IMG/VR virus record: IMGVR_UViG_3300020045_005768
Location: 1-30,321 of that record
Length of the DNA stretch: 30,321 bases
Reading direction: 5' to 3' (one strand)
Source of the DNA: a virus
Taxonomy: Duplodnaviria > Caudoviricetes
Shown here in pieces: positions 15,607 through 30,243 of this stretch. The notes below the pieces were generated by a model. The model did not search any database. It saw only the letters and a list, made by a program, of their open reading frames with translations, and was not told where the DNA came from. The first letter of the stretch is position 1. Each line of letters begins with the position of its first letter. The position numbers and the translations under genes are program-made.

Positions 15607-16476
15607 GTGTACGAATGGTCTGAAGTATTCATGAGTATTGAAGGTGAAGGTCCTCTAACAGGTGCACCAACAGCCTATATTCGCTTTGCGCGTTGTAATT
15701 TCACATGCAAAGGTTTTAACAATCCAAACAACGAAGATACAACTGATATCAGCGTAATTGGTTTTGATCCGAAGAGTTACAAGAACATCACAGAGATTCC
15801 TTTGATTACAAAGGGATGTGATTCAATCTACTCGTGGGATGAGAAATTCTCTCATATGTGGAAGAAGGGTGATGCGACTCAACTCGCTAAAGAGTTGATT
15901 GATGTTCTTCCGAACAAGAAGTTCCAATTACCAAGCAATCCGAATATGAAGGTGGTACTGTCAGTGACAGGTGGTGAACCTACACTACGAGCGAAGTTTA
16001 TTCCGAAGCTTCTCGGTCATGAATTGTTCAATGATCTCGATACGGTTCTCATCGAAACGAATGCATCAGTTAAACTCTCTGATAAATTTGTTGAAGAGAT
16101 GAATATCTGGGTGACAAGTGGTTCTGCGATGCGTGGTGTTATCTGGAGTAATTCTCCGAAGCTGAGTTCTTCTGGTGAAGAGTGGAAGAAGGCGATTATT
16201 CCTTCTGTTATCAAACAACAAGCACGAGTTCGAAACAGCATTCAGTATCTCAAGTTTGTTGTTGGAGATAGTGATGCTCATTTCGCTGAGGTCGCAAAAG
16301 CGGTCAAAGAACTCGATCCTCAGTATCAGATGCCTGTGTATGTGATGCCGGAGGCGTGCACTGAGGAACAACAGAAAATTGTTGGTATCAAGGTCGCGAA
16401 GCGCTGTATGGAACTCGGTTACATCTACTGTCATCGAGTGCAGAACTCAGTATTCGGTAATGGAGTTGGAACTTGA
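15607..16476 (+). CDS. queE: 7-carboxy-7-deazaguanine synthase (radical SAM)
   Basis: EVFxSIEGEG, RFARCNFTC...GCDS, TGGEP, IETN, SPKLSSSG, LKFVV. Confidence 0.85.
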   Translation: MYEWSEVFMSIEGEGPLTGAPTAYIRFARCNFTCKGFNNPNNEDTTDISVIGFDPKSYKNITEIPLITKGCDSIYSWDEKFSHMWKKGDATQLAKELIDVLPNKKFQLPSNPNMKVVLSVTGGEPTLRAKFIPKLLGHELFNDLDTVLIETNASVKLSDKFVEEMNIWVTSGSAMRGVIWSNSPKLSSSGEEWKKAIIPSVIKQQARVRNSIQYLKFVVGDSDAHFAEVAKAVKELDPQYQMPVYVMPEACTEEQQKIVGIKVAKRCMELGYIYCHRVQNSVFGNGVGT

Positions 16477-16739
16477 ATCGAACACAACAATTCCTCGACC
16501 TTCTCTGTCAGGCACCTGATTGCTATGTGCCACGAAAGTATTGTGGCTTCATAGCGTCCTTGATTTATTTAGATGAAACACTTATAATGGATGGTCTAAA
16601 TAGGCTTTTAACGGATGAATTTAAGATACATCCGGATACAAAAGCACACATTCGAAAGTTTATTGATGAAATACAATTACAAAAGAATGAGAGCGTTTCT
16701 ATCGAGTCAGAAGGAAGCACTTCAGAAACAAAAGTTTGA
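16473..16739 (+). CDS. Hypothetical protein
   Basis: TTG start overlapping queE stop; overlaps next gene. Confidence 0.45.
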   Translation: MNRTQQFLDLLCQAPDCYVPRKYCGFIASLIYLDETLIMDGLNRLLTDEFKIHPDTKAHIRKFIDEIQLQKNESVSIESEGSTSETKV

Positions 16740-17118
16740 ACATATCATTGCAGTAGGTCGTGGTGCAATGATAGTTGCAGTTCATCTATCTCACATGCTC
16801 GATGTTCCTATCAGTGTTATCCCCTGGTCACGTAAGGGTGGAGGCATCATTCCTAATGATGTCTACGATGTTATTGAGAGAGGTGAGAAGATACTCTTTG
16901 TAGATGAAATCGTTGATACTGGTATCACGATGCATATGATACTCAGAAAAATTGAGCTCGCTTTTGAAAACGGCACAATGCACTATACGAGTAAGAGAAC
17001 ATTCAAACCGCAGATGTTCTGTCTGGTTTACATCAAAAACAATCTATTCACACCTACGTATTACGATAAGAACTTTGATACGAAGAATGAATTTGTTGAC
17101 TTTTTCTGGGAGAAGTAA
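16666..17118 (+). CDS. Type I purine phosphoribosyltransferase (Gpt-like)
   Basis: IIAVGRGA..AxxLSHxL and ILFVDEIVDTGIT PRPP-binding loop; C-terminal FFWE; start uncertain. Confidence 0.8.
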   Translation: MKYNYKRMRAFLSSQKEALQKQKFEHIIAVGRGAMIVAVHLSHMLDVPISVIPWSRKGGGIIPNDVYDVIERGEKILFVDEIVDTGITMHMILRKIELAFENGTMHYTSKRTFKPQMFCLVYIKNNLFTPTYYDKNFDTKNEFVDFFWEK

Positions 17119-17810
17119 TGAACGAAGAAATTTCTAGTATCATTCGTCAGCGTATCAAAGAAGCTGGTGCAAGATTTTTTGCTTGTGATAATATCTCAAA
17201 ATTTATTCAACCAGGTGAACTCGATAAACTCAAAGATGAAGTTGAGATAATCTTTCAGGAAGTGCTGAATTCTCTTTTGATTGATACTATTGGAGATCCA
17301 AATTCTCGTGATACAGCGCGAAGACTCGCTGAAATGTATATTGATGAATTATTTTCGGGTCGTTATTATCCAGAACCTGATTGCACTGCATTCCCGAATG
17401 ATACCCACGATCGCTACAAAGGTATGCTCGTTATTCGAGCTGAATTGAAATCTGTCTGCTCACATCACCATCAACCAGTTCGTGGTATCGCATATGTAGG
17501 TATTATTCCAACAAAGAAAGTGATCGGTCTATCGAAGTATATTCGTATCGCTCAGTGGCACGCGCGTCGTGGTACTCTTCAAGAAGAATTGTGCAACCGA
17601 ATCGCTGACTCAATCTGCAAAGTAACAGAGTCACCGAATGTGGCTGTATACATCGCAGCTCGTCATGGTTGCTGCGAGAATCGTGGTGTTGAGGCACACT
17701 CATCACTGACCCAAACAACAGTGCTACATGGTAATTTTAATGAACCTGATGTGAAGAAAGAATTCTTCGACAACATTGCATTGCAGCAGACATACCAAGA
17801 GAAGCTCTAA
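17118..17810 (+). CDS. folE: GTP cyclohydrolase I
   Basis: SVCSHHHQP, VIGLSK, LQEE, HGCCENRGV. Confidence 0.93.
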   Translation: MNEEISSIIRQRIKEAGARFFACDNISKFIQPGELDKLKDEVEIIFQEVLNSLLIDTIGDPNSRDTARRLAEMYIDELFSGRYYPEPDCTAFPNDTHDRYKGMLVIRAELKSVCSHHHQPVRGIAYVGIIPTKKVIGLSKYIRIAQWHARRGTLQEELCNRIADSICKVTESPNVAVYIAARHGCCENRGVEAHSSLTQTTVLHGNFNEPDVKKEFFDNIALQQTYQEKL

Positions 17811-18037
17811 TGCTCATCAACCCTGCAGAGTTACACATTCTTATCCATACCACAACAGGTGGTACAGGGAAAATATATCGTAACCACTACGTTGCACCAC
17901 CTGGAACGGATTCTCTTCCTATCATTGAAAAACTTATTGGTTCTGGTTTGATGAAGAAGAATTCCTTTACAGAGAACACATACATGGTTACATCAGAGGG
18001 TATGAAGATTGTTGAAGGAGCACTACATCATGAATAA
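17810..18037 (+). CDS. Small hypothetical protein
   Basis: TAATG-coupled; YRNHY motif. Confidence 0.6.
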   Translation: MLINPAELHILIHTTTGGTGKIYRNHYVAPPGTDSLPIIEKLIGSGLMKKNSFTENTYMVTSEGMKIVEGALHHE

Positions 18038-18404
18038 AAATCTCGAAGATACTCTCAGGAAAATGCAATCACTTGCGATGACACCTGATGATGTATACAA
18101 ATTACTTCTTGAAAATGAGCGATTGAAAGCTGAGAAAGCTCCAAGTAAAGAAGAAATACTACTCAGTCTCATCAAACGCGTTGGTGATAAGCACAACTGG
18201 AAGCATGGTTGGTCTGCACGTGGGTGCTATTTACACTTAGAGTCATCAGAGTTGATTGAGGCTCTTCGTGGTAAGGGTGGCAATCCAACAGACGAAGCTG
18301 GTGATGTTCTAGGTGTGTTGATGTCAATCATCATAACAGAGAATCTCGATTGGAATAAAGTGTTGGATATGGCGATCATAAAAATGGACGAGATGTTGAA
18401 ATGA
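18030..18404 (+). CDS. MazG-like NTP pyrophosphohydrolase
   Basis: ExxE..(ESSELIEA)...ExxD (DEAGDV) all-alpha NTP-PPase pattern; SD AAGGAG. Confidence 0.65.
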   Translation: MNKNLEDTLRKMQSLAMTPDDVYKLLLENERLKAEKAPSKEEILLSLIKRVGDKHNWKHGWSARGCYLHLESSELIEALRGKGGNPTDEAGDVLGVLMSIIITENLDWNKVLDMAIIKMDEMLK

Positions 18405-19474
18405 GAATAATTGAAGATATAAAACTCGATTTTAATGATGTATTGATTCAACCAAAGCGTTCGACGCTTGAAAGTCGTAGTGAGGTTGATCTTCTTCGTG
18501 AGTTTACATTCCCACATTCTCATGAAATCTTAAAGTGCATACCAATCGTTGCGTCTAATATGGATACAGTTGGAACTTTTGAGATGCATGATGTTCTATC
18601 CCATAATTCACTACTCACAACAATTCACAAACACTATACCAAAGCTGAGTGGCAGGAATTCAACCCCGTTACATACAAATTTGTGATACCGAGTATTGGT
18701 GCATCACAGTTTGAGTTTGACGAGCTAATGAAGATCTTAGCTGCTCATACACACATCAACAAGATCTGCATTGATGTAGCGAATGGATATCATCAGAATT
18801 TCTTGAAAGCAGTTGAAAGAGTTCGTAATTCATACCCGTGGATGACAATCATTGCTGGTAACGTTGTTACTCCTGAAATGACAGAGGCGTTGATTCTCGC
18901 AGGTGCTGATGTTGTAAAGGTTGGTATCGGTTCTGGTGCCGCGTGTACAACGAGATTGAAAACAGGTGTCGGTTACCCTCAACTCTCAGCAATCATTGAG
19001 TGCGCTGACGCAGCTCATGGTCTCAATGGTCATGTGATGTCGGATGGTGGTTGTGTTACTCCTGGTGATATCGCGAAAGCCTTTGCGGCTGGTGCTGATT
19101 TTGTGATGCTCGGCTCGATGCTCGCTGGTCATGCTGAAGCTGGTGAGAAGAATCTCATCACTGAGGTAGACATTGGTGTTGTACCTCGCAAAGGTAAAGC
19201 AGTGCCCCGCAGAGTTGTAGGTGTTAGATTCAGAGGTATGAGTTCATCTGCTGCGATGAAAGATCATCATGGTGAAGTAGATGAATATCGCACATCAGAA
19301 GGTCGTGAGCTGACAATTCCATACAAAGGTAAGGTTGAACACACACTCAGAGATATTCTTGGTGGTCTGCGCTCAGCATGTACATATACAGGTGCGAAGA
19401 CACTCAAAGAACTTCCGAAGAGAGCTACCTTCATCAGAGTAAATAATCAGTTAAATGATTCCTTGGTGCGATAG
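18401..19474 (+). CDS. guaC: GMP reductase (type 1)
   Basis: MRIIEDIKLDFxDVLIxPKRSTL, DVANG, KVGIGSGAACTTR, SEGR, GGLRSACTYTGA. Confidence 0.92.
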   Translation: MRIIEDIKLDFNDVLIQPKRSTLESRSEVDLLREFTFPHSHEILKCIPIVASNMDTVGTFEMHDVLSHNSLLTTIHKHYTKAEWQEFNPVTYKFVIPSIGASQFEFDELMKILAAHTHINKICIDVANGYHQNFLKAVERVRNSYPWMTIIAGNVVTPEMTEALILAGADVVKVGIGSGAACTTRLKTGVGYPQLSAIIECADAAHGLNGHVMSDGGCVTPGDIAKAFAAGADFVMLGSMLAGHAEAGEKNLITEVDIGVVPRKGKAVPRRVVGVRFRGMSSSAAMKDHHGEVDEYRTSEGRELTIPYKGKVEHTLRDILGGLRSACTYTGAKTLKELPKRATFIRVNNQLNDSLVR

Positions 19475-19491
19475 AGGGCATACCTTATAAT
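19463..19491 (+). promoter_or_regulatory. Sigma70-like promoter TTGGTG-N17-TATAAT for ligase
   Basis: Spacing and perfect -10. Confidence 0.55.
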
Positions 19492-19521
19492 GTATTGTGT
19501 TAAACTAACTGAGAGTTCATA

Positions 19522-20880
19522 ATGATTGAAGTTATTGAGATTATCAATCGCGTTGCCCTCACTTCTTCACGTAATGAGAAAGAAGAAATTCTGAGGAAGT
19601 ATTCAGATAATGTGGATCTAAAGCAAGCAGTGTTTCTTGCCTATGATCAGTTTACACAGTTCTACATTCGTAAGATTCCAAAATATAAACCCAACTTCGA
19701 CTCTTCGAAACAACCTTGGACGCTGCAAGATGCGTTTAACGGTCTCAAAGGTCTGAGTGAGCGTAAATTCACTGGCAACGCAGGTGTTGAGCATCTGACG
19801 AAGATTCTTGAAAATGTATCTAATCAAGATGCTTTGGTGATTATGCTTATCATTGGTAAGGATTTGAAGTGTGGTGCATCTGAAGCCACATTCAACAAAA
19901 TCTGGCCGGACCTTGTGAAAACATATCCGATAATGAAAGCTTCGCAGTTCGATAAGAAGCTCATTGAGCGGTTCATCACATGGCCAGCTGGTGTTCAACT
20001 GAAGATGGATGGCATGCGTGGTAACATCCATCTCAAGCGCAATAAAGAAATTCTCGCGTACTCGCCGAGTGGTAAAGATCTTTTCTTCCACCGTATTGTT
20101 GAAGAAGCAGCTCGCGCTTGGTTTGATGCGCTCGGTGCATTTCCTTGTGTGATTGATGGTGAATTCTACTGCGTCAAGAATGGTAAAATTCTTCCGCGCA
20201 AAGAGGGTAATGGAATTTGCAACAAAGCGATTCGTGGAACAATTAGTGAAGAAGAAGCATCATGGATACGCTTCAAAGTGTGGGATGTGATTCCGCTCGA
20301 AGATTGGGAAAAGAAGTTGTGTGAGATTCCCTACAAAGAGCGTTATGGTTTCATTCTTCAAGCTGATCGTATTCTTCATGAAACTGGTGCATACTACAAA
20401 GAAAGTCAATACAACCCAATCAGCGTTCTTGCAACAGAAATGGTCAACTCGCTTGAAGAAGCTGTTGAGATTTTCCAGCGCTTCTTGAAAGCAGGTGAAG
20501 AAGGTATCATCCTGAAGGATATGGAAGGTGTCTGGGAAGATACACGCGCGAAAGATCAGATCAAGTTCAAGAATGCGCTTCAATGTGAACTTCGAGTGAA
20601 GGGTTGGAAACCTGGAACACCAGGCACGAAGTATGAAGGTATGCTCGGTTCACTTGAGTGCTACTCTGAAGATGATATCATCAAAGTCAACATCTCGTGG
20701 TTCACTGATGAAGAGAGAGCCAAAGGTCCTGAATTCTACATGAACAAGATTGTGACTGTTGAATACAATTCGCGTATTATCAACGAGAAAGGTGAACACT
20801 CGTTATTTATTCCTGGTTTTATCGAAGTGCGTGATGATAAGAATATCGCGCAAACTGAAGATACAATCCCATATATTTAA
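19522..20880 (+). CDS. gp30: ATP-dependent DNA ligase (T4 gp30-like)
   Basis: KMDGMR motif I, IDGE, WDVI, EEGIILK, KFK, OB-domain tail FIEVRDDK. Confidence 0.93.
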   Translation: MIEVIEIINRVALTSSRNEKEEILRKYSDNVDLKQAVFLAYDQFTQFYIRKIPKYKPNFDSSKQPWTLQDAFNGLKGLSERKFTGNAGVEHLTKILENVSNQDALVIMLIIGKDLKCGASEATFNKIWPDLVKTYPIMKASQFDKKLIERFITWPAGVQLKMDGMRGNIHLKRNKEILAYSPSGKDLFFHRIVEEAARAWFDALGAFPCVIDGEFYCVKNGKILPRKEGNGICNKAIRGTISEEEASWIRFKVWDVIPLEDWEKKLCEIPYKERYGFILQADRILHETGAYYKESQYNPISVLATEMVNSLEEAVEIFQRFLKAGEEGIILKDMEGVWEDTRAKDQIKFKNALQCELRVKGWKPGTPGTKYEGMLGSLECYSEDDIIKVNISWFTDEERAKGPEFYMNKIVTVEYNSRIINEKGEHSLFIPGFIEVRDDKNIAQTEDTIPYI

Positions 20881-20898
20881 TCAAGAGGTTATACTACA

Positions 20899-21078
20899 AT
20901 GATAGATGACAAAGAAACAAATTACGTCCCTGATGCAAAGATGCATCTCTATGTCAGTATTGCGAAGAGTATTCTTCGCCTCGGTGCTGCAGTTACGTTG
21001 ATGAGCGAAATGTTCATTGTAGCAGGTGTGTTGTTTCTACTTGCAGAAATTCTTGGAATTGTTGAAGAGGTTGTTTAA
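20899..21078 (+). CDS. 59-aa membrane protein coupled to queD (not in ORF track)
   Basis: SD GAGG; MIDDKETNYVPDAKMHLYVSIAKSILRLGAAVTLMSEMFIVAGVLFLLAEILGIVEEVV; TAATG overlap with queD. Confidence 0.7.
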   Translation: MIDDKETNYVPDAKMHLYVSIAKSILRLGAAVTLMSEMFIVAGVLFLLAEILGIVEEVV

Positions 21079-21542
21079 TGGCAAAATTCAGATCGGTTAA
21101 AGCCTACGGGCACGAGCGTGGTTATGCAGTAGCTTATCGTCAGTGGCGCGCTGATTCTCACTGTAATTTGATTCACGGTTACGCAATGGCGTTTCTGTTT
21201 GAATTTGAATGTGATGAAGATAAGTTGGATCGTCGTAACTGGTGTGTTGACTTTGGTTCATACAAATCGTTGAAAGAAAAACTTGATGAGTGGTTCGATC
21301 ACACTCTACTTGTTGCTCAAGATGACCCCGAATTCAAGACATTCGAAGAGCTTCACAAGAAGAAATTATGCAACATGGTTGTTGTTGAACGCACGGGCTG
21401 CGAAGGTCTTGCGAAATTTCTTGCTGATTACATTCAAGAAATTTGGATGGAAGAAAATGGTTATGGTGACGGTCGCGTGAAACTGATCAGAGTTCGCGTT
21501 CAGGAGACACCTTCAAATTGGTCTGAATGGAATAATGAGTAA
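21078..21542 (+). CDS. queD: 6-carboxy-5,6,7,8-tetrahydropterin synthase
   Basis: HCNLIHGY, WCVDFG, FDHTLL, GCEGLA, VQETPSN. Confidence 0.88.
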   Translation: MAKFRSVKAYGHERGYAVAYRQWRADSHCNLIHGYAMAFLFEFECDEDKLDRRNWCVDFGSYKSLKEKLDEWFDHTLLVAQDDPEFKTFEELHKKKLCNMVVVERTGCEGLAKFLADYIQEIWMEENGYGDGRVKLIRVRVQETPSNWSEWNNE

Positions 21543-25423: not shown

Positions 25424-25446
25424 CTATCTCAGATTTGGAGATTAAT

Positions 25447-25830
25447 ATGCAGCGATTTAAAGAGTTCATAACAGAGATGTCTCACAGTCTCGCTATTCTT
25501 CCAGCGACACGTATCCTCTACAATAAGAATAAAGTGGGTCACGACGAACTCGGTGCCGATCATAAAGATGGTACAGTATACGCCGCACGTATGCATACAG
25601 GCTCCGGCGATAAACACGTCTTTCTTCACAGTGCTGGAGGAAAACTCAGCGATGTAAAAGTTGGTACAAAGCATTTCTGGCACCACGATCAGACACAACC
25701 TGGCGGTCAACGATCCGGTTCTCAACGCTTAACAATTGATAACGTGATACATCACAAAGATGGTAAGATTCACTCACACGAAAATGATGTGGGTGTCAAT
25801 GAGAAGCGACCGGTGTACGTGTTCAAATAA
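25447..25830 (+). CDS. His-rich putative internal head protein
   Basis: N-terminus MQRFKEFITE resembles T4 capsid-targeting sequence MKTYQEFIAE; late promoter, SD GGAG. Confidence 0.65.
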   Translation: MQRFKEFITEMSHSLAILPATRILYNKNKVGHDELGADHKDGTVYAARMHTGSGDKHVFLHSAGGKLSDVKVGTKHFWHHDQTQPGGQRSGSQRLTIDNVIHHKDGKIHSHENDVGVNEKRPVYVFK

Positions 25831-26198
25831 TGCCTACAAAGAAAGTATTCATTCCTGGAAGCGGCTGGCACGAGGTGAAAGTACCTGTGAAGAAAGAGAA
25901 GGATCCAGAGAAAGTCAAACGCTTCAAAGAGCATGTGAATGAGTCAACAACTACACTGAAAGACAAAATTCGTCATCACGTTTTCGCTGCGTGGAAAGAA
26001 GATGGTCTGACACATACACCAGAGAATCATCACCGTGAATTAGAAGGTGATGATCTCGATGATTTTGAAGATCATGTTGATGATGTGCATAAGCATATGA
26101 AGAAGCACAACATCAAAGACCCTGAGAAGGGTACTCATCATTACATGGAAACACTCGCAAACGCTCAAGACGCGGCCCATAAGAAAACGAGACACTAA
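25830..26198 (+). CDS. His-rich putative internal head protein
   Basis: TAATG-coupled; internal KRFKEHVNE resembles the same targeting motif. Confidence 0.55.
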   Translation: MPTKKVFIPGSGWHEVKVPVKKEKDPEKVKRFKEHVNESTTTLKDKIRHHVFAAWKEDGLTHTPENHHRELEGDDLDDFEDHVDDVHKHMKKHNIKDPEKGTHHYMETLANAQDAAHKKTRH

Positions 26199-26239
26199 TG
26201 AAAACATACAAAGAATTTAAAAAATATCCTTTATTTTAA
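26198..26239 (+). pseudogene. Remnant of an internal-protein gene (MKTYKEFKKYPLF*)
   Basis: TAATG-coupled; first 7 residues nearly identical to T4 MKTYQEF; runs into a promoter. Confidence 0.45.
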
Positions 26240-26258
26240 TGGCAAGGGGTACTAGAAT
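26230..26258 (+). promoter_or_regulatory. Promoter TTTATT-N17-TAGAAT for tRNA-Met
   Basis: Spacing; similar to 26373 promoter. Confidence 0.5.
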
Positions 26259-26276
26259 ATATATAGTAATGACAAT

Positions 26277-26353
26277 AGCAGTTGGGGAGCTTAAGTAGCT
26301 CAGTGGTCTCATAAGCCACTACCATGTAGGTGCAAATCCTACCGCTGCTACCA
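26277..26353 (+). tRNA. tRNA with CAT anticodon (Met/fMet/Ile2 not resolved)
   Basis: Cloverleaf, loop CTCATAA, encoded CCA. Confidence 0.85.
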
Positions 26354-26372
26354 AAATTCTTTAAAAGATATC

Positions 26373-26401
26373 TTTATTTAATTGGTCAGATATCTTATAA
26401 T
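26373..26401 (+). promoter_or_regulatory. Promoter TTTATT-N17-TATAAT for leader peptide/tRNA array
   Basis: Exact spacing; overlapped by AAGATATCT/AGATATCTT inverted repeat. Confidence 0.7.
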
Positions 26402-26435
26402 TGTTGTATAGTAAATTTTAACTAACGAAATAAAC

Positions 26436-26564
26436 ATGAAAACAGATAAACGCACATTGGAAAAGTATCAAAGCTGGTCACAGCATCTTGATATTTGTGT
26501 GTTTACAGGCTCAAATGCGGGAGAGCCTAGTAAGAAGCCTTTTGTGGATACGTGGGATGAGTAA
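26436..26564 (+). CDS. Putative attenuator leader peptide (42 aa) containing all 20 amino acids
   Basis: MKTDKRTLEKYQSWSQHLDICVFTGSNAGEPSKKPFVDTWDE*; stop lies inside the antiterminator; SD weak. Confidence 0.7.
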   Translation: MKTDKRTLEKYQSWSQHLDICVFTGSNAGEPSKKPFVDTWDE

Positions 26565-26592
26565 GTAGTCCCATCGAGTCAAAACAAAAGGC
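26537..26592 (+). promoter_or_regulatory. Antiterminator hairpin
   Basis: GCCTTTTGT (26537-45) pairs ACAAAAGGC (26584-92); inner TGGGA/TCCCA; exclusive with terminator. Confidence 0.75.
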
Positions 26593-26616
26593 CATCTGGA
26601 GACAGTGGCCTTTTTT
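26586..26616 (+). terminator. Intrinsic terminator (attenuator) upstream of tRNA array
   Basis: AAAAGGCCA-T-CTG-GAGA-CAG-TGGCC-TTTTTT. Confidence 0.85.
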
Positions 26617-26793
26617 ATTGATTCAAGTGTAATGAGGAACGCGACCTCGTGAGGCACTTAAAACATCTCAGGATTGGCGGCGGCTAGGATGAAATTCATG
26701 GCGGCAACTTGAAGAGTAAAATAAGTCAGAGTGGGGAAGGCCTACTCCTTAATTGAAAGTTATTTCAGTGAGATTATTTTCAATTAAGAATTT

Positions 26794-26870
26794 GGTTCCT
26801 TAGCTCAGTTGCGTAGAGCATCCTCCTTACAAGTGGAATGTCGAAGGTTCGAGTCCTTCAGGAATCACCA
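26794..26870 (+). tRNA. tRNA-Val(TAC)
   Basis: Cloverleaf, loop CTTACAA, CCA. Confidence 0.9.
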
Positions 26871-26875
26871 AATTC

Positions 26876-26951
26876 GGTAGTGAAGCTCATATGGATGAGC
26901 GGCGTCTTGATAAGGCGAAGGCAAAAGGTTCGAATCCTTTGACTACCACCA
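26876..26951 (+). tRNA. tRNA-Ile(GAT)
   Basis: Loop TTGATAA, TTCGAAT T-loop, CCA. Confidence 0.9.
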
Positions 26952-26958
26952 AAGTTAT

Positions 26959-27031
26959 GCGTTTATTCTCCTGGGAGAGGACATAGCCTTCCAAGCTATT
27001 GGACGCGGTTCGAATCCGCGTAGACGCTCCA
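26959..27031 (+). tRNA. tRNA-Gly(TCC)
   Basis: Loop CTTCCAA, U73, CCA. Confidence 0.9.
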
Positions 27032-27037
27032 AACAAT

Positions 27038-27121
27038 GTATCGTATGACACAACGGTGTGTCAGCTGTCTGTAAAACAGCCGCCTCTGGCATGGTGGGTT
27101 CGATCCCCTCACGGTACACCA
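27038..27121 (+). tRNA. tRNA-Tyr(GTA)
   Basis: Loop CTGTAAA, long variable arm, CCA. Confidence 0.88.
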
Positions 27122-27127
27122 GATTAT

Positions 27128-27203
27128 GGTGCCAAAGTGTTTATGGATGCATGCGACACTGTCAATGTCGAGGGGTCGGGATCGTTACCCGCTGGCACCG
27201 CCA
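27128..27203 (+). tRNA. tRNA-Asp(GTC)
   Basis: Loop CTGTCAA, G73, CCA. Confidence 0.88.
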
Positions 27204-27278
27204 AAATAGATATCACGGTCTTCCAACCCGCGAGGTTGGTGATACTCAAGAGTATCGTAAAACACGTGTACAGACAAT

Positions 27279-27352
27279 GATCAGCTCGTCTAGTGGTAAG
27301 ACGGAAGCCTCCAAAACTTCCTACGAGGGTTCGATTCCTTCGCTGATCGCCA
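27279..27352 (+). tRNA. tRNA-Trp(CCA)
   Basis: Loop CTCCAAA, CCA end. Confidence 0.9.
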
Positions 27353-27362
27353 GTATTAAAAT

Positions 27363-27429
27363 AGAATAGTTACAGCAAACAATAAAGACTACCAATCTTG
27401 TTAATTGTCTTAGTCGACAAAGCTATTCT
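27363..27429 (+). ncRNA. CAGCAA-stem RNA, copy 1
   Basis: AGAATAGT/GCTATTCT stem, TACAGCAA after 5' arm. Confidence 0.55.
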
Positions 27430-27438
27430 GATAATTTT

Positions 27439-27486
27439 AGGATCAGTTCAGCAACCAACATCCTTTTATGGAAAAAAGTTGATCCT
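27439..27486 (+). ncRNA. CAGCAA-stem RNA, copy 2
   Basis: AGGATCAG/TTGATCCT stem, TTCAGCAA, A-run before 3' arm. Confidence 0.55.
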
Positions 27487-27501
27487 GTTAACAAAGAATT
27501 T

Positions 27502-27576
27502 GGGTCATAAACTTAGGTGATGAAGCACTCGGCTCTTAACCGATAGAAGAAGGTTTGATTCCTTCATGACCCACCA
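27502..27576 (+). tRNA. tRNA-Lys(CTT)
   Basis: Loop CTCTTAA, CCA. Confidence 0.88.
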
Positions 27577-27583
27577 GATTTAT

Positions 27584-27652
27584 TCTCGCCGACCAGCGTC
27601 TCGGACGTGTTGCAACACGTTTGATGGGGACCAACACCTCGGGTGGGAGCCA
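27584..27652 (+). ncRNA. tRNA-like RNA with reduced D-arm and 6-nt (or smaller) anticodon loop
   Basis: TCTCGCC/GGTGGGA-G-CCA acceptor; ACGTG-TTGCAA-CACGT; T-arm TGGGG-ACCAACA-CCTCG. Confidence 0.55.
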
Positions 27653-27796
27653 TTTTAGAGCTAGACGGTTTGATCGAGTATGAGTGACGTGTCCGTTACA
27701 TCGTATTAGGGATTGCACGTTTATGGAACTCTCGAATTCGAGACAATCTCATGAGTCCACAGATAGGATAGTGAGGCGCTCTTGTTTTATAACAAC

Positions 27797-27872
27797 ACAC
27801 GGTAATGCAAAGTGTCGAGCAACAGGACCTTCAACCCTGTCCTAACGGGAGCGTGCCCCGTATCGTGTACCA
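27797..27872 (+). tRNA. Atypical tRNA (anticodon TTC with C33, or TCA in shifted register)
   Basis: ACACGGT/ATCGTGT-A-CCA; ACAGG-ACCTTCAAC-CCTGT; non-canonical T-loop AGCGTGC. Confidence 0.55.
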
Positions 27873-27877
27873 AATAT

Positions 27878-27953
27878 GTTTCCGTCGTCTAACGGCTTAG
27901 GACATCACACTTTCACTGTGAGTATGGGAGTTCGATTCTCCTCGGGAACGCCA
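27878..27953 (+). tRNA. tRNA-Glu(TTC)
   Basis: Loop CTTTCAC, CCA. Confidence 0.9.
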
Positions 27954-27958
27954 AATAT

Positions 27959-28023
27959 GGACTAGAATCCGGTGTGGGCTTAACCTGCATGCGGGGATAA
28001 GAAGGGTCAAGCCTTCATGGTCC
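27959..28023 (+). ncRNA. Degenerate tRNA-like element
   Basis: GGACTA/TGGTCC outer stem, GAAGG-GTCAAG-CCTTC T-like arm, no D-arm or proper CCA. Confidence 0.35.
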
Positions 28024-28184
28024 TACCCAGATTCGCAAGCACAAATATGCGATGAGCCGCTCAAAGACTTTGCAAGGTCGATGAAGTGTATAATGGTAGC
28101 CCTCTTAAGGCCCGAGCTTATCCCGAGTAGTGGTGAGTAGCTCTCATTTAGAGCAATCTAACGAGTGAACAATAGGAGATGAAG

Positions 28185-28301
28185 ATGAGAAATTATTTCA
28201 AAAAGCTTGGTCGCCGTAAAGCAGGTTCATGGGGTCGCCCTCATGGCTGGTATGGAAAAAGAATTGCGAGTAAAGCAACTCGTAAGTGTCAAGTAGTTTA
28301 A
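28185..28301 (+). CDS. 38-aa highly basic peptide inside tRNA array
   Basis: SD AGGAG; MRNYFKKLGRRKAGSWGRPHGWYGKRIASKATRKCQVV*. Confidence 0.55.
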   Translation: MRNYFKKLGRRKAGSWGRPHGWYGKRIASKATRKCQVV

Positions 28302-28323
28302 CAAGAGCGAAAGGAGTTCGATT

Positions 28324-28377
28324 ATGAAGCGAAAATCGAAAGATGGTAAACGAAGATTCAGAGGGAGTGTAGTGTAA
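28324..28377 (+). CDS. 17-aa Lys/Arg-rich mini-ORF overlapping tRNA-Lys 5' end
   Basis: SD AAGGAG; MKRKSKDGKRRFRGSVV*. Confidence 0.4.
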   Translation: MKRKSKDGKRRFRGSVV

Positions 28378-28438
28378 AGACCGCACACCGGACTTTTAAT
28401 CCGGACAGAGTTGGGTTTGATTCCCACCGCTCCTACCA
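28363..28438 (+). tRNA. tRNA-Lys(TTT)
   Basis: CCGGA-CTTTTAA-TCCGG, CCA. Confidence 0.88.
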
Positions 28439-28479
28439 TCGTAATAATTGATGCATTTCTAACGAGATGTATGAATTAT

Positions 28480-28573
28480 TCCGCGGTACTCTAACTGGTA
28501 AGAGACCTCACTGTTAATGAGACGTATTCCGCCTTCGAGCGGTATGGGGGTTCGAAGCCCTCCTGTGGAGCCA
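28480..28573 (+). tRNA. tRNA-Asn(GTT) with long variable arm
   Basis: Loop CTGTTAA, G73-CCA; extra hairpin CCGC-CTTCGA-GCGG. Confidence 0.8.
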
Positions 28574-28580
28574 TTACAAT

Positions 28581-28656
28581 TCCAAAGTAGCACAGCGGTA
28601 GTTGCGCCTGACTGTTAATCAGGATGTCGTAGGTTCGATCCCTACCTTTGGAGCCA
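28581..28656 (+). tRNA. tRNA-Asn(GTT)
   Basis: Canonical cloverleaf. Confidence 0.92.
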
Positions 28657-28663
28657 GATTTAT

Positions 28664-28739
28664 CTCTCATTCGGTTAGCGGCTATACCACTCCGTTTGGG
28701 GCGGAGATTTCGAAAGTTCGAGTCTTTCATGAGAGACCA
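28664..28739 (+). tRNA. tRNA-Pro(TGG)
   Basis: CTCCG-TTTGGGG-CGGAG, C1-G72, A73. Confidence 0.9.
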
Positions 28740-28745
28740 TACAAT

Positions 28746-28836
28746 GGAGAGTTAACTGCACAGGGTGCAGCGCTGTTTGCTAAACAGTTGGTACGGTGAA
28801 GAGCCGTATGGGGATCGTTACCTCAATTCTCCGCCA
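28746..28836 (+). tRNA. tRNA-Ser(GCT)
   Basis: Loop TTGCTAA, long variable arm, G73. Confidence 0.9.
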
Positions 28837-28842
28837 AGTAAT

Positions 28843-28917
28843 GCTTAGGTCGTCTAATTTACTAAGGCGCTCACATTCCAGTGGGATATGTTGGAGAATA
28901 ACCAACCCTTCGCTCCA
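28843..28917 (+). ncRNA. Gly-like tRNA body with 6-nt anticodon loop
   Basis: GC..AGG/CCT..GC-T-CCA with two mismatches; CTCAC-ATTCCA-GTGGG. Confidence 0.55.
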
Positions 28918-28921
28918 GTAT

Positions 28922-28995
28922 GCGAGTGTAGCTTAGTGCTCAAAGCGGTGCCCTACGGGGCACAATCGGTGGTTTAAATCCATCCACTCGCTCCA
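28922..28995 (+). ncRNA. Gly-like tRNA body with anticodon loop replaced by cUACGg tetraloop
   Basis: Perfect GCGAGTG/CACTCGC-T-CCA; GTGCCC-TACG-GGGCAC. Confidence 0.75.
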
Positions 28996-29000
28996 GTTTT

Positions 29001-29115
29001 GGATCATTTCAGCAATCAACTTATTCCTCTGTAAAAGGACTAGAGCGGTTCAACTCCGCATCGAGGGCTTCAATCCTCGTTTAGTGTAACGGTAGCACAG
29101 TAAAAAAGGTGATCC
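29001..29115 (+). ncRNA. CAGCAA-stem RNA, copy 3, enclosing a circularly permuted tRNA (YrlA/Y-RNA-like)
   Basis: GGATCATT/GGTGATCC stem; inside, in order: anticodon arm (GTA), T-arm, looped acceptor stem, D-arm. Confidence 0.7.
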
Positions 29116-29125
29116 AGTTAAATAT

Positions 29126-29200
29126 GGGGGCAGTAGCGGGCTACGGAGAATACTTGCAATATTCTTGTCTAGAAGGGTTCAACTCCCTCGGTCTCCACCA
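29126..29200 (+). tRNA. tRNA-Ala(TGC) with short D-arm
   Basis: Loop CTTGCAA, G3:U70, A73-CCA. Confidence 0.82.
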
Positions 29201-29206
29201 AACAAT

Positions 29207-29281
29207 GGTCCTGTAATTCAGTGGTAGAATGTTCGCCCGATTAGCGAAACGTCGAGGGTTCGAATCCTTCCAGGACTACCA
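29207..29281 (+). tRNA. tRNA-Ile(GAT) with non-canonical loop (C33, U37)
   Basis: TTCGC-CCGATTA-GCGAA; otherwise canonical. Confidence 0.75.
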
Positions 29282-29289
29282 AGAACAAT

Positions 29290-29362
29290 CGCTCCGAGGC
29301 TCGATAGCTGCGAGTGGCTTTGAACCACTTCGAAGAAGGTTTGACTCCTTCCGGGGCTGCCA
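29290..29362 (+). tRNA. tRNA-Gln(TTG)
   Basis: AGTGG-CTTTGAA-CCACT, G73-CCA. Confidence 0.85.
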
Positions 29363-29367
29363 AATTT

Positions 29368-29470
29368 AGAGTAGATACAGCAACACAAACTTCCTCTCCA
29401 AAGATGTACCAAGGGCCGTCAGTGGTGACATTCCAATGGGTTCGACTCCCAGGCTTAGGAAACCTACTCT
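29368..29470 (+). ncRNA. CAGCAA-stem RNA, copy 4, containing a T-arm
   Basis: AGAGTAG/CTACTCT stem, ATACAGCAA, TGGG-TTCGACT-CCCA. Confidence 0.6.
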
Positions 29471-29480
29471 GCCATACAAT

Positions 29481-29553
29481 TGCCCCGAGGCTCGATAGCT
29501 ACGCTTGGCTCTGAACCAAGTCGGAGATAGTTTGACTCTATCCGGGGTTGCCA
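29481..29553 (+). tRNA. tRNA-Gln(CTG)
   Basis: CTTGG-CTCTGAA-CCAAG; paralog of 29290. Confidence 0.85.
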
Positions 29554-29594
29554 GCTTCAGAGATGTGCGTCTTACGTAAACGCACGATATTTGA

Positions 29595-29680
29595 CACCAT
29601 GATCCGAATGGAAAGGGACCACGCTTCGAACGTGGCGCTGCTTCGTGCAGTTGGGGGTTCGAGTCCTCTCATGGTGACCA
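29595..29680 (+). tRNA. tRNA-Arg(TCG) with long variable arm
   Basis: CCACG-CTTCGAA-CGTGG; extra arm CTGC-TTCGT-GCAG; CACCATG/CATGGTG-A-CCA. Confidence 0.8.
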
Positions 29681-29688
29681 TATAAATA
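29681..29688 (+). promoter_or_regulatory. T4-type late promoter inside tRNA array
   Basis: Exact TATAAATA upstream of tRNA-Leu and ORF 29807. Confidence 0.6.
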
Positions 29689-29704
29689 GTAGTTTAAGAA
29701 CAAA

Positions 29705-29789
29705 GCATCTGTGGTGGAATTGGTATACACGCTATCTTGAGGGGGTAGTGCCTCACAGCTTGAGAGTTCGAGTCTCTCCAGATGCACCA
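29705..29789 (+). tRNA. tRNA-Leu(GAG)
   Basis: Loop TTGAGGG, long variable arm, A73. Confidence 0.92.
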
Positions 29790-29806
29790 AAATAGAAGGA
29801 TCTACG

Positions 29807-30025
29807 ATGAGCGAAGATCGCCTTTATGGATTATTGATTACAGGTGGATTTGCTATTATCGGGTGGTTTATATCAAGAATATTTGCCGAGATTGAAAGAA
29901 GCCGCACAAATGAGAGAAAACTCTTTGAACTTATCAACGCGGCTGAAAAAGAGCAGCTGAAACAGCATATTGAAATTCTCGAAGATCAGCGTGATCAAGC
30001 GAGAAAATCAAAGAACAATGTATGA
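29807..30025 (+). CDS. Small single-TM, coiled-coil protein
   Basis: SD AAGGA; N-terminal hydrophobic helix then charged heptads. Confidence 0.65.
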   Translation: MSEDRLYGLLITGGFAIIGWFISRIFAEIERSRTNERKLFELINAAEKEQLKQHIEILEDQRDQARKSKNNV

Positions 30026-30095
30026 GTGGACTGAAAGGTTAGGCAATCGCCTGCAAAGCGAAATCATGAGAGTTCGAATCTCTCCTCATACTCCA
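30020..30095 (+). tRNA. tRNA-Cys(GCA)
   Basis: Loop CTGCAAA, U73-CCA; overlaps stop codon of upstream ORF. Confidence 0.9.
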
Positions 30096-30098
30096 ATA

Positions 30099-30166
30099 GG
30101 TGGTGTTAGTTTACTGGATAAAACAGCCCCATAACAGGGGAGGAAGAAGGTTCGATTCCTTCACAC
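30099..30166 (+). pseudogene. 3'-truncated tRNA-like element with 6-nt anticodon loop
   Basis: D-arm and GAAGG-TTCGATT-CCTTC intact; CCCC-ATAACA-GGGG; acceptor 3' strand breaks after ACAC. Confidence 0.55.
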
Positions 30167-30243
30167 TTTCGAGTCAGCTCCACGGGTTCGTTGGCGCGAA
30201 TCTATAGACTGGCGTTTCTGATCCTATCCTACAAGATATTGTA

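Follow-up and report, generated by a model that had tools for sequence, protein, structure and literature searches.

A 42-codon open reading frame of all 20 amino acids as part of a predicted transcription attenuator ahead of a phage tRNA array

The window, by which we mean the whole 30,321-nt stretch of DNA that was analyzed, is, as judged from its genes, a 30.3-kb contig of an uncultured T4-like phage. PHROG matches were obtained for a head protease, scaffold, major head, tail tube, UvsY and helicase, and further for a late sigma factor, an SbcC/D-like nuclease, a ligase and Que-type genes. The nearest cultured match of the major head protein was that of Stenotrophomonas phage DLP6 (70%). 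The Que-type region at 15607-21542 contained QueE-like, GTP cyclohydrolase and QueD-like genes according to PHROG, a set that would represent the 7-deazaguanine pathway and could modify DNA or tRNA. Two ORFs rich in His, Asp and Lys (131 and 122 aa) were located at 25435-26198, just upstream of the region considered here. The PHROG comparison gave no match for either of them, and a homologue search with the 122-aa ORF next to the leader returned only itself. The features from this point to the tRNA genes are as follows.

26229..26258, + strand: predicted promoter-like site 1, CTTTATTT...TAGAAT with 17-nt spacing, upstream of the tRNA-CAT
26274..26353, + strand: tRNA with CAT anticodon, upstream of the switch (ARAGORN)
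26357..26366, + strand: boxA-like motif TTCTTTAAAA (motif match)
26372..26401, + strand: promoter-like site 2, CTTTATTT...TATAAT, likely the leader promoter (pattern match)
26436..26564, + strand: leader ORF of 42 codons with all 20 amino acids (ORF list, composition count)
26436..26528, + strand: predicted sensor part, codons 1-31 with all 20 types, ending at the predicted onset of ribosome coverage of the antiterminator arm
26447..26505, + strand: predicted long hairpin within the ORF (MFE folds)
26507..26540, + strand: competing short helices, 26507-11 with 26536-40 as a previously proposed protector and 26507-12 with 26523-28 as a local hairpin (pair probabilities)
26537..26592, + strand: predicted antiterminator, arms 26537-26545 and 26584-26592, inner stem 26547-26580 (folding)
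26586..26619, + strand: predicted intrinsic terminator, stem 26590-26610 with A4 extension and T6 tract (sequence, folding)
26623..26742, + strand: conserved structured RNA, first element after the terminator, ends approximate (alignment, folding)
26794..30171, + strand: tRNA array, 18 ARAGORN calls

The promoter-like pattern had only two matches in the window, at 26229-26258 and 26372-26401; two matches were obtained in 0 of 100 shuffles, with a pattern that was itself derived from these two sites. The -10 hexamer of site 2 was identical in the wastewater relative described below. The tRNA-CAT scored 23.2 bits against Rfam, below the gathering score of 29, and is outside the control of the switch because it lies upstream of the leader. 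A tRNA-CAT upstream of the leader was also seen in several relatives (L086, L113, L216, L218 and L219). The boxA-like motif TTCTTTAAAA at 26357-26366 was present at the head of many tRNA arrays among the IMG/VR loci fetched here.

The arrangement of promoter, 42-codon ORF, terminator and tRNAs described in an earlier sequence-only reading was confirmed in the window. A recount of the leader ORF also agreed with the statement that its first 31 codons comprise all 20 amino acids and 26 distinct codons, the 20th type, Pro, being first reached at codon 31. No amino acid occurred in a run longer than two, and Ala accounted for one of the 42 codons. Because Met occurs nowhere but at the start, the leader does not sample elongator Met. 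A Met followed by 30 random codons would contain all 20 types with a probability of 3-4e-4, a figure resting on a cut-off chosen after the fact, and the fairer figure for the whole ORF (Met and 41 random codons) was 0.9-1.2%. The peptide gave no homologue candidate in a protein search, the ORF had no PHROG match, and blastn of the leader against cultured phages returned matches to tRNAs only among the 40 of 45 records listed. The Rfam search of the leader region found no significant match either at the gathering threshold or at E up to 10, the best leader-type match being Phe_leader with a non-significant E of 9.6. The long hairpin predicted at 26447-26505 would be a possible pause site.

The two segments GCCTTTTGT (26537-26545, codons 34-37) and ACAAAAGGC (26584-26592) close one hairpin, the predicted antiterminator, which had a folding energy of -23.8 kcal/mol with a z of -5.6 and was equaled in stability by 0 of 200 shuffles. 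The fold agreed with the earlier proposal that codons 34-37 pair with the 5' arm of the terminator and that the stop codon lies in the loop, here the loop of the inner stem. The T6 tract at 26611-26616 directly follows the terminator stem 26590-26610. A standard terminator scan of the window did not report the terminator at 26590-26616, and a purpose-written finder detected it at -11.6 kcal/mol. The nucleotides common to both folds were 26590-26592 in the stem and 26586-26589 in the A4 extension, and the competing folds were nearly isoenergetic, within 1 kcal/mol (-26.9 vs -27.9 kcal/mol). Before the 3' arm of the antiterminator is made, the proposed protector pairing was predicted at 0.47-0.60 as against 0.40-0.52 for the local hairpin, the two being about evenly matched; once the arm is made the protector fell to 0, at 3' ends 26593 and 26605. 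A search with the antiterminator-arm pattern yielded four IMG/VR matches without tRNAs and one metagenome match without a tRNA.

The structured RNA behind the terminator, which the sequence-only reading had not mentioned, is roughly 110 nt in length. In an alignment of 20 rows, picked from 30 unique sequences to limit near-duplicates, 18 of the 20 predicted pairs showed two-sided change, and Rfam had no match for it in the window or in the seven loci tested. Downstream of the motif, tRNAs were found in 27 of 29 unique loci. Inspection by eye (window, L216-L259) suggested a possible pseudoknot in which the 5' end of the RNA pairs with the conserved loop. A scan of GTDB for the motif gave a single match, which lay within a protein-coding frame without tRNA or terminator and was taken as chance. 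Beyond the 18 ARAGORN calls of the array, a relaxed threshold added at least four tRNAs, Lys-CTT, Ser-GCT, Gln-TTG and Gln-CTG, and the array may be cut, as the contig ends at 30321. No sigma70-like promoter was predicted between the window's terminator and the first tRNA.

Three separately fetched sets of loci were used for comparison. Set 1 consisted of 80 IMG/VR loci retrieved with the window's DNA ligase and 81 retrieved with a boxA-like motif followed by a tRNA T-loop, queries that contain nothing of the leader. The detector required a terminator at -8 kcal/mol or lower and an ORF of 25-60 aa ending 12-50 nt upstream of it, and kept the most diverse candidate ORF in the tRNA-near and the control class alike. 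The window, duplicates, terminators with less than 250 nt upstream, those lying 800-2000 nt from a tRNA, and those without a downstream tRNA and with less than 800 nt remaining in the locus were left out. Of the 56 unique terminators with a tRNA on the same strand no more than 800 nt away, 31 were preceded by an ORF with at least 19 amino-acid types, as compared with 4 of 376 control terminators; when only terminators with any such ORF were counted, the values were 31 of 40 and 4 of 100, respectively. The detector had been written after the loci of set 1 were seen, and sets 2 and 3 matter for this reason. With thresholds unchanged, the 40 further loci of set 2 gave 4 of 11 new tRNA-near terminators vs 0 of 24 controls, and a sequence like the window's post-terminator spacer followed three of the four leaders.

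Set 3 was obtained by scanning for the post-terminator RNA motif and comprised 44 IMG/VR loci, of which 29 were unique and 28 offered 300 nt or more of upstream sequence; it overlapped set 2 in at least two contigs. A terminator was located within 60 nt of the motif in 16 of the 28, as in the window, and all 16 were preceded by an ATG ORF of 43-56 aa that ended 25-32 nt before the terminator stem and contained 20 types in twelve cases, 19 in three and 18 in one. When the best candidate in the 1200 nt upstream was taken, 20 types were reached in 22 of the 28 loci, 19 in three and 18 in two, with no candidate in one. By chance, 20 types would be reached by 0.8% of ORFs of 42 aa, by 3.6% of those of 52 aa and by 6.7% of those of 58 aa. 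Across the three sets the leader stop was mostly positioned 20-35 nt before the stem. As the source phages are related, these locus counts are not independent of one another and overstate the independence of the cases. The terminator finder detected none in four 900-nt stretches of L043, one of L055 or 1200 nt of L240.

Clustering at 60% identity reduced the 35 leaders of set 1 (those with at least 16 types for which an arm was detected; in two of them a long TTG start was trimmed to an inner GTG) to 25 clusters including the window, and the leaders of set 3 to 15. The peptides were 10-26% identical to that of the window, indicating that composition was kept rather than sequence. A DNA profile of 34 leaders (nhmmer) gave no match to the window's leader. 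The other loci share the design, and homology of their leaders to that of the window is not supported.

The diversity did not extend to the codon level. The 26 distinct codons noted in the sequence-only reading compare with 26.1 expected by chance for these amino acids, and the 25 leaders together had 633 distinct codons vs 620-630 expected with usage weights taken from the window's genes, which again is chance level. The supposed sampling of split synonyms was likewise rejected: among leaders with two or more codons of the amino acid concerned, both synonyms were present in 4 of 11 for Lys, 5 of 9 for Gln and 2 of 4 for Glu. With respect to the start of translation, none of GGAG, GAGG and AGGA, nor any SD-like motif, was found upstream of the window's leader; by eye, such a motif was also absent at 13 of the 27 other starts listed for this phage. 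An SD-like motif was present in 4 of the 25 leader clusters, and in 8 of the 25 the start lay 5-8 nt after the -10 hexamer, as it would in leaderless mRNAs. A second sigma70-like promoter was predicted between the terminator and the first tRNA in 17 of the 25 clusters of set 1, which had been selected largely for boxA. The switch would therefore not be the sole source of tRNA in those phages, and an attenuator would add to a basal supply. In set 3, a sigma70-like promoter between terminator and RNA motif was predicted in one of the 27 leader-bearing loci.

The pairing between the 3' region of the ORF and the 5' arm of the terminator was also compared. The mean duplex energies were -15.4 kcal/mol for cognate pairs, -10.8 kcal/mol for swapped pairs and -6.3 kcal/mol for the 376 controls. 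The window's duplex, at -13.3 kcal/mol, ranked first of 25 for its own arm, and was matched by 3.5% of the controls and by 151 of 5000 synonymous recodings. In a 15-member leader family, the RNAalifold consensus corresponded to the antiterminator and 92% of the cells paired, while the covariation was modest, with two-sided changes in 2 of 11 pairs and a score reached by 13 of 500 shuffles.

If single codons act as the sensors, they must lie 5' of the point at which the ribosome starts to cover the antiterminator arm, which was taken as the P-site plus 12 nt. In the window this boundary falls at codon 31, the codon of its last new amino acid (p 0.04 alone). In the 24 other clusters, 446 types were found before the boundary vs 417.6 +/- 5.1 in shuffled order (0 of 5000), with 0 of 5000 at offsets of 9 and 15 as well; the corresponding numbers for the 15 clusters of set 3 were 284 vs 274.7 +/- 3.7 (33 of 5000). 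Every type was located before the boundary in just 12 of the 24 and 7 of the 15 clusters. Val was the type most commonly missing or located 3' of the boundary, and was absent from 8 of the 25 leader clusters. Constraints from base pairing in the tail of the ORF could contribute to the 5' placement of the diversity.

Among cultured phages, the element was found in one of the six loci screened, that of Xanthomonas phage X1 (OQ427096.1, leader at about 135510-135740). Its leader is a 39-codon ORF, unannotated and with 19 types (Cys is lacking), whose stop lies 29 nt before a terminator and whose last codons contain an arm; 34 tRNAs were called, the first of them at a distance of 321 nt. Phage BUDD was 89% identical to X1 there, and the start, stop and length were kept with 18 types. 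The X1 leader (L170 4805-4977) has its ATG 5 nt after ATAAATA, an arrangement to be expected if a late-type promoter yields a leaderless transcript. The element was looked for in the loci of DLP6, Aswh_1 and AM24 and none was seen; none was seen in RAS14 and Atu_ph07 either, where the array head may be out of view.

One variant, approximately 93% identical over 26381-26617, was detected in contigs from four wastewater runs, which represent at most three samples of one study at a depth of 3.5-6.4 and probably derive from DNA. According to a difference table read by hand, the start, stop and frame of the leader were all kept, and four codons were changed, all non-synonymously, with loss of the single Cys leaving 19 types. 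Only one change was present in 26460-26573 vs nine in 26381-26435. Both antiterminator arms were identical to those of the window, the inner stem had one change in a bulge and one turning a G-C into a G-U pair, and the terminator differed in its loop and nowhere else.

The effect of a translating ribosome was modeled by equilibrium folding with a masked ribosome footprint, leaving out sterics and kinetics. At the 3' end 26593, the antiterminator was predicted at 0.99-1.0 when no ribosome was present and when the A site stood at any of the codons tested from 5 to 31 (up to 30 with the longest footprint). It was predicted at 0 for the five positions tested among codons 32-40. The sequence-only reading had placed the melting of the antiterminator at the stop codon. 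In the model it was lost at codons 32-40 instead, and a ribosome at the stop codon left the arm free, with the antiterminator at 0.80-0.82 at the 3' end 26610. The accompanying claim that a stall at any earlier codon gives read-through agreed with the model up to about codon 31, and failed for codons 32-40. With a stall at codon 5, the terminator was favored at the 3' end 26610 (0.65-0.76). The results for the stop codon and for codon 5 indicated that the switch depends on timing and sterics.

In the proposed mechanism, transcription would begin near 26372-26401, with a ribosome trailing RNA polymerase on the 42-codon ORF. When decoding is fast, a ribosome past codon 32 would cover 26537-26545 while 26584-26610 is being made, upon which the terminator would fold and transcription would end near 26616. 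A ribosome waiting at one of codons 2-31, among which every amino acid except Met is represented (19 types), or one that never loads, would allow the antiterminator to form first, and polymerase would then read into the structured RNA and the tRNA genes. The comparisons show the sequence elements, their recurrence, a pairing that persists between unrelated sequences and the placement of the amino-acid diversity. Translation, coupling and read-through are the steps that we infer here, and the natural signal may be starvation, depletion of charged tRNA through phage protein synthesis, or the cutting of tRNAs.

We assign a probability of roughly 0.78 to the reading that the leader is a ribosome-coupled transcription attenuator which senses the whole charged-tRNA pool and gates the tRNA operon. 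The presence of an ORF over a predicted switch, in a layout recurring with unrelated peptides in dozens of other phages, suggested that tRNA output probably rises in this phage when ribosomes stall because almost any one charged tRNA is in short supply. The core of the earlier proposal of a pan-tRNA sensor was strongly supported by the comparative evidence and by the precedent of whiB7 described below, while its strict form with all 20 amino acids was not, as the relative without Cys and the frequent absence of Val indicate. The element might instead be a translation-coupled timer or a gauge of ribosome availability, or might mainly control the structured RNA, with no amino-acid sensing or tRNA replacement involved. 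Read-through is indeed predicted by default when no ribosome is present (antiterminator 1.0 at 3' ends 26593-26605), second tRNA promoters occur in 17/25 of the relatives' clusters, the structured RNA comes first after the terminator here and in 16/28 loci, and some leaders follow late-promoter-like motifs, as in X1. A timer, however, needs neither a near-complete amino-acid coverage nor its placement 5' of the boundary, and the tRNAs lie downstream in 27/29 unique motif loci, other leaders having been found via boxA and tRNA alone. We regard this explanation as unlikely.

A switch operated by a protein or an RNA, or a terminator that is simply leaky, with an untranslated ORF there by chance, was considered very unlikely. 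The recurrence of the ORF with its stop at a similar distance from the stem in all three sets argues against it, as do the leaderless-like starts in 8/25 leaders and the lack of any T-box or riboswitch match in Rfam, even though the leader has no SD motif, a lone 42-codon ORF has all 20 types in about 1% of cases by chance, and the two folds are near-equal in energy (-26.9 vs -27.9 kcal/mol). Similarly very unlikely is the explanation that the ORF encodes a functional small protein, the terminator merely ending the transcript and the antiterminator pairing being incidental. All four changed codons in the wastewater relative alter the amino acid with the frame kept, and a few residues such as Trp are kept within leader families, as would suit a protein. 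Against this, the searches gave neither a homologue of the peptide nor a PHROG match, its identity to other leaders is low while composition and spacing are fixed, and the duplex is far stronger than in control terminators. The absence of synonymous changes in the relative also points to a constraint at the RNA level.

The attenuator reading can be compared with several known systems. The uORF of M. smegmatis whiB7 contains 19 of the 20 amino acids, all but Cys; removal of its single Trp codon lowers the response to Trp starvation, and 18 of 20 amino-acid pathways were hits in the reported screen (10.1101/2023.06.02.543512). In the actinobacterial whiB7/wblC uORF, efficient translation is described as leading to an intrinsic terminator and stalling to an antiterminator, as predicted here, and a broad amino-acid content is tied to the terminator/antiterminator pair in both. 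The whiB7/wblC uORF, as described, has 25-40% Ala, is chromosomal and acts on a transcription factor, unlike the phage leader, which has one Ala in 42 codons and 20 types in 31 codons and is followed by a structured RNA and tRNAs. The precedent makes the mechanism plausible, and broad sensing is not new in itself; the novelty here lies in the target, a tRNA operon, in the occurrence in a phage and in a composition that is both compact and evenly spread. The trp, his and phe leader attenuators and the multivalent ilv ones, such as that of C. glutamicum ilvBNC, have a promoter, a short ORF and overlapping antiterminator and terminator with a U-tract (PMC11857589). The window shares with this type the short ORF after a promoter and, in the predicted folds, the mutually exclusive terminator and antiterminator overlapping the 3' part of the ORF; it differs in having no repeated codons for one to three cognate amino acids and in being followed by a structured RNA and tRNAs rather than by a biosynthetic operon. 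The toiL uORF of E. coli topAI-yjhQ is likewise a broad sensor of translation stress, but is described as acting on translation initiation and Rho termination in answer to ribosome-targeting antibiotics (PMC12121999), and not by way of an intrinsic terminator switch.

T-boxes, which have a stem I with a specifier loop, are terminator/antiterminator switches that depend on tRNA charging; they sense one tRNA directly and need no ORF. This class was ruled out, as there was no Rfam match at the gathering threshold or at E up to 10 and the antiterminator has no 7-nt bulge. No account of a leader-peptide attenuator before phage tRNA genes was found among the top-listed papers in searches of CC-licensed PMC and bioRxiv; both this leader and the RNA behind its terminator could figure in supplementary compilations of candidate phage RNAs or small genes. 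Neither phage nor tRNA genes are mentioned in the retrieved text of PMC2965389.

Explanations for phage tRNAs include codon-use compensation, sustained translation and the replacement of nuclease-cut tRNAs, and are hard to separate. The reason for large phage tRNA sets is still described as poorly understood (PMC12482277). A feedback switch in front of the tRNA genes would make the question of tRNA function directly testable, since the condition that opens it would be the condition that the tRNAs answer. Such an element would be a leader-peptide attenuator of tRNA genes, in which tRNA supply regulates tRNA synthesis. The tRNA-Lys of T5 rescues from PARIS (PMC11464382), which explains why a phage might provide its own tRNA once that of the host is cleaved, and motivates, without showing, a counter-defense role here; the retrieved text of the same article describes no regulation of the phage tRNA genes. 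It is a tentative idea, and one that we hold at clearly less than even odds, that large phages have repeatedly built a compact gene of all amino acids with which the entire charged-tRNA pool of the host is tested and replacement tRNAs are turned on when needed, also under attack by anticodon nucleases, as an inducible counter-defense operated by the ribosome. A link to PrrC, PARIS or retron nucleases, as suggested in the sequence-only reading, is conjectural. The element could also be put to use as a small reporter of translation stress or of tRNA-cutting defense, and its occurrence in the cultured phages X1 and BUDD makes experimental work feasible.

The array itself showed several further characteristics. 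A long AT-rich hairpin at 26748-26788, right before the first tRNA, is a possible processing signal, and a hairpin with similar outer arms follows the RNA motif in L243. The motif TATAAATA, presumably late-promoter-like by resemblance to the T4 motif, occurs within the array at 29681-29688 just before tRNA-Leu, with six more copies elsewhere in the window; the copy at 29681 may drive the distal tRNAs late. The segment 28998-29122, called neither by ARAGORN nor by Rfam, resembles a circularly permuted tRNA-Tyr (GTA), folding in the order of anticodon arm, T arm, loop-joined acceptor strands and D arm, with an outer stem enclosing all of them. Elements at approximately 27362-27430, 27441-27488, 29001-29118 and 29367-29472 have in common an outer stem followed by CAGCAA, and differ in their inserts.
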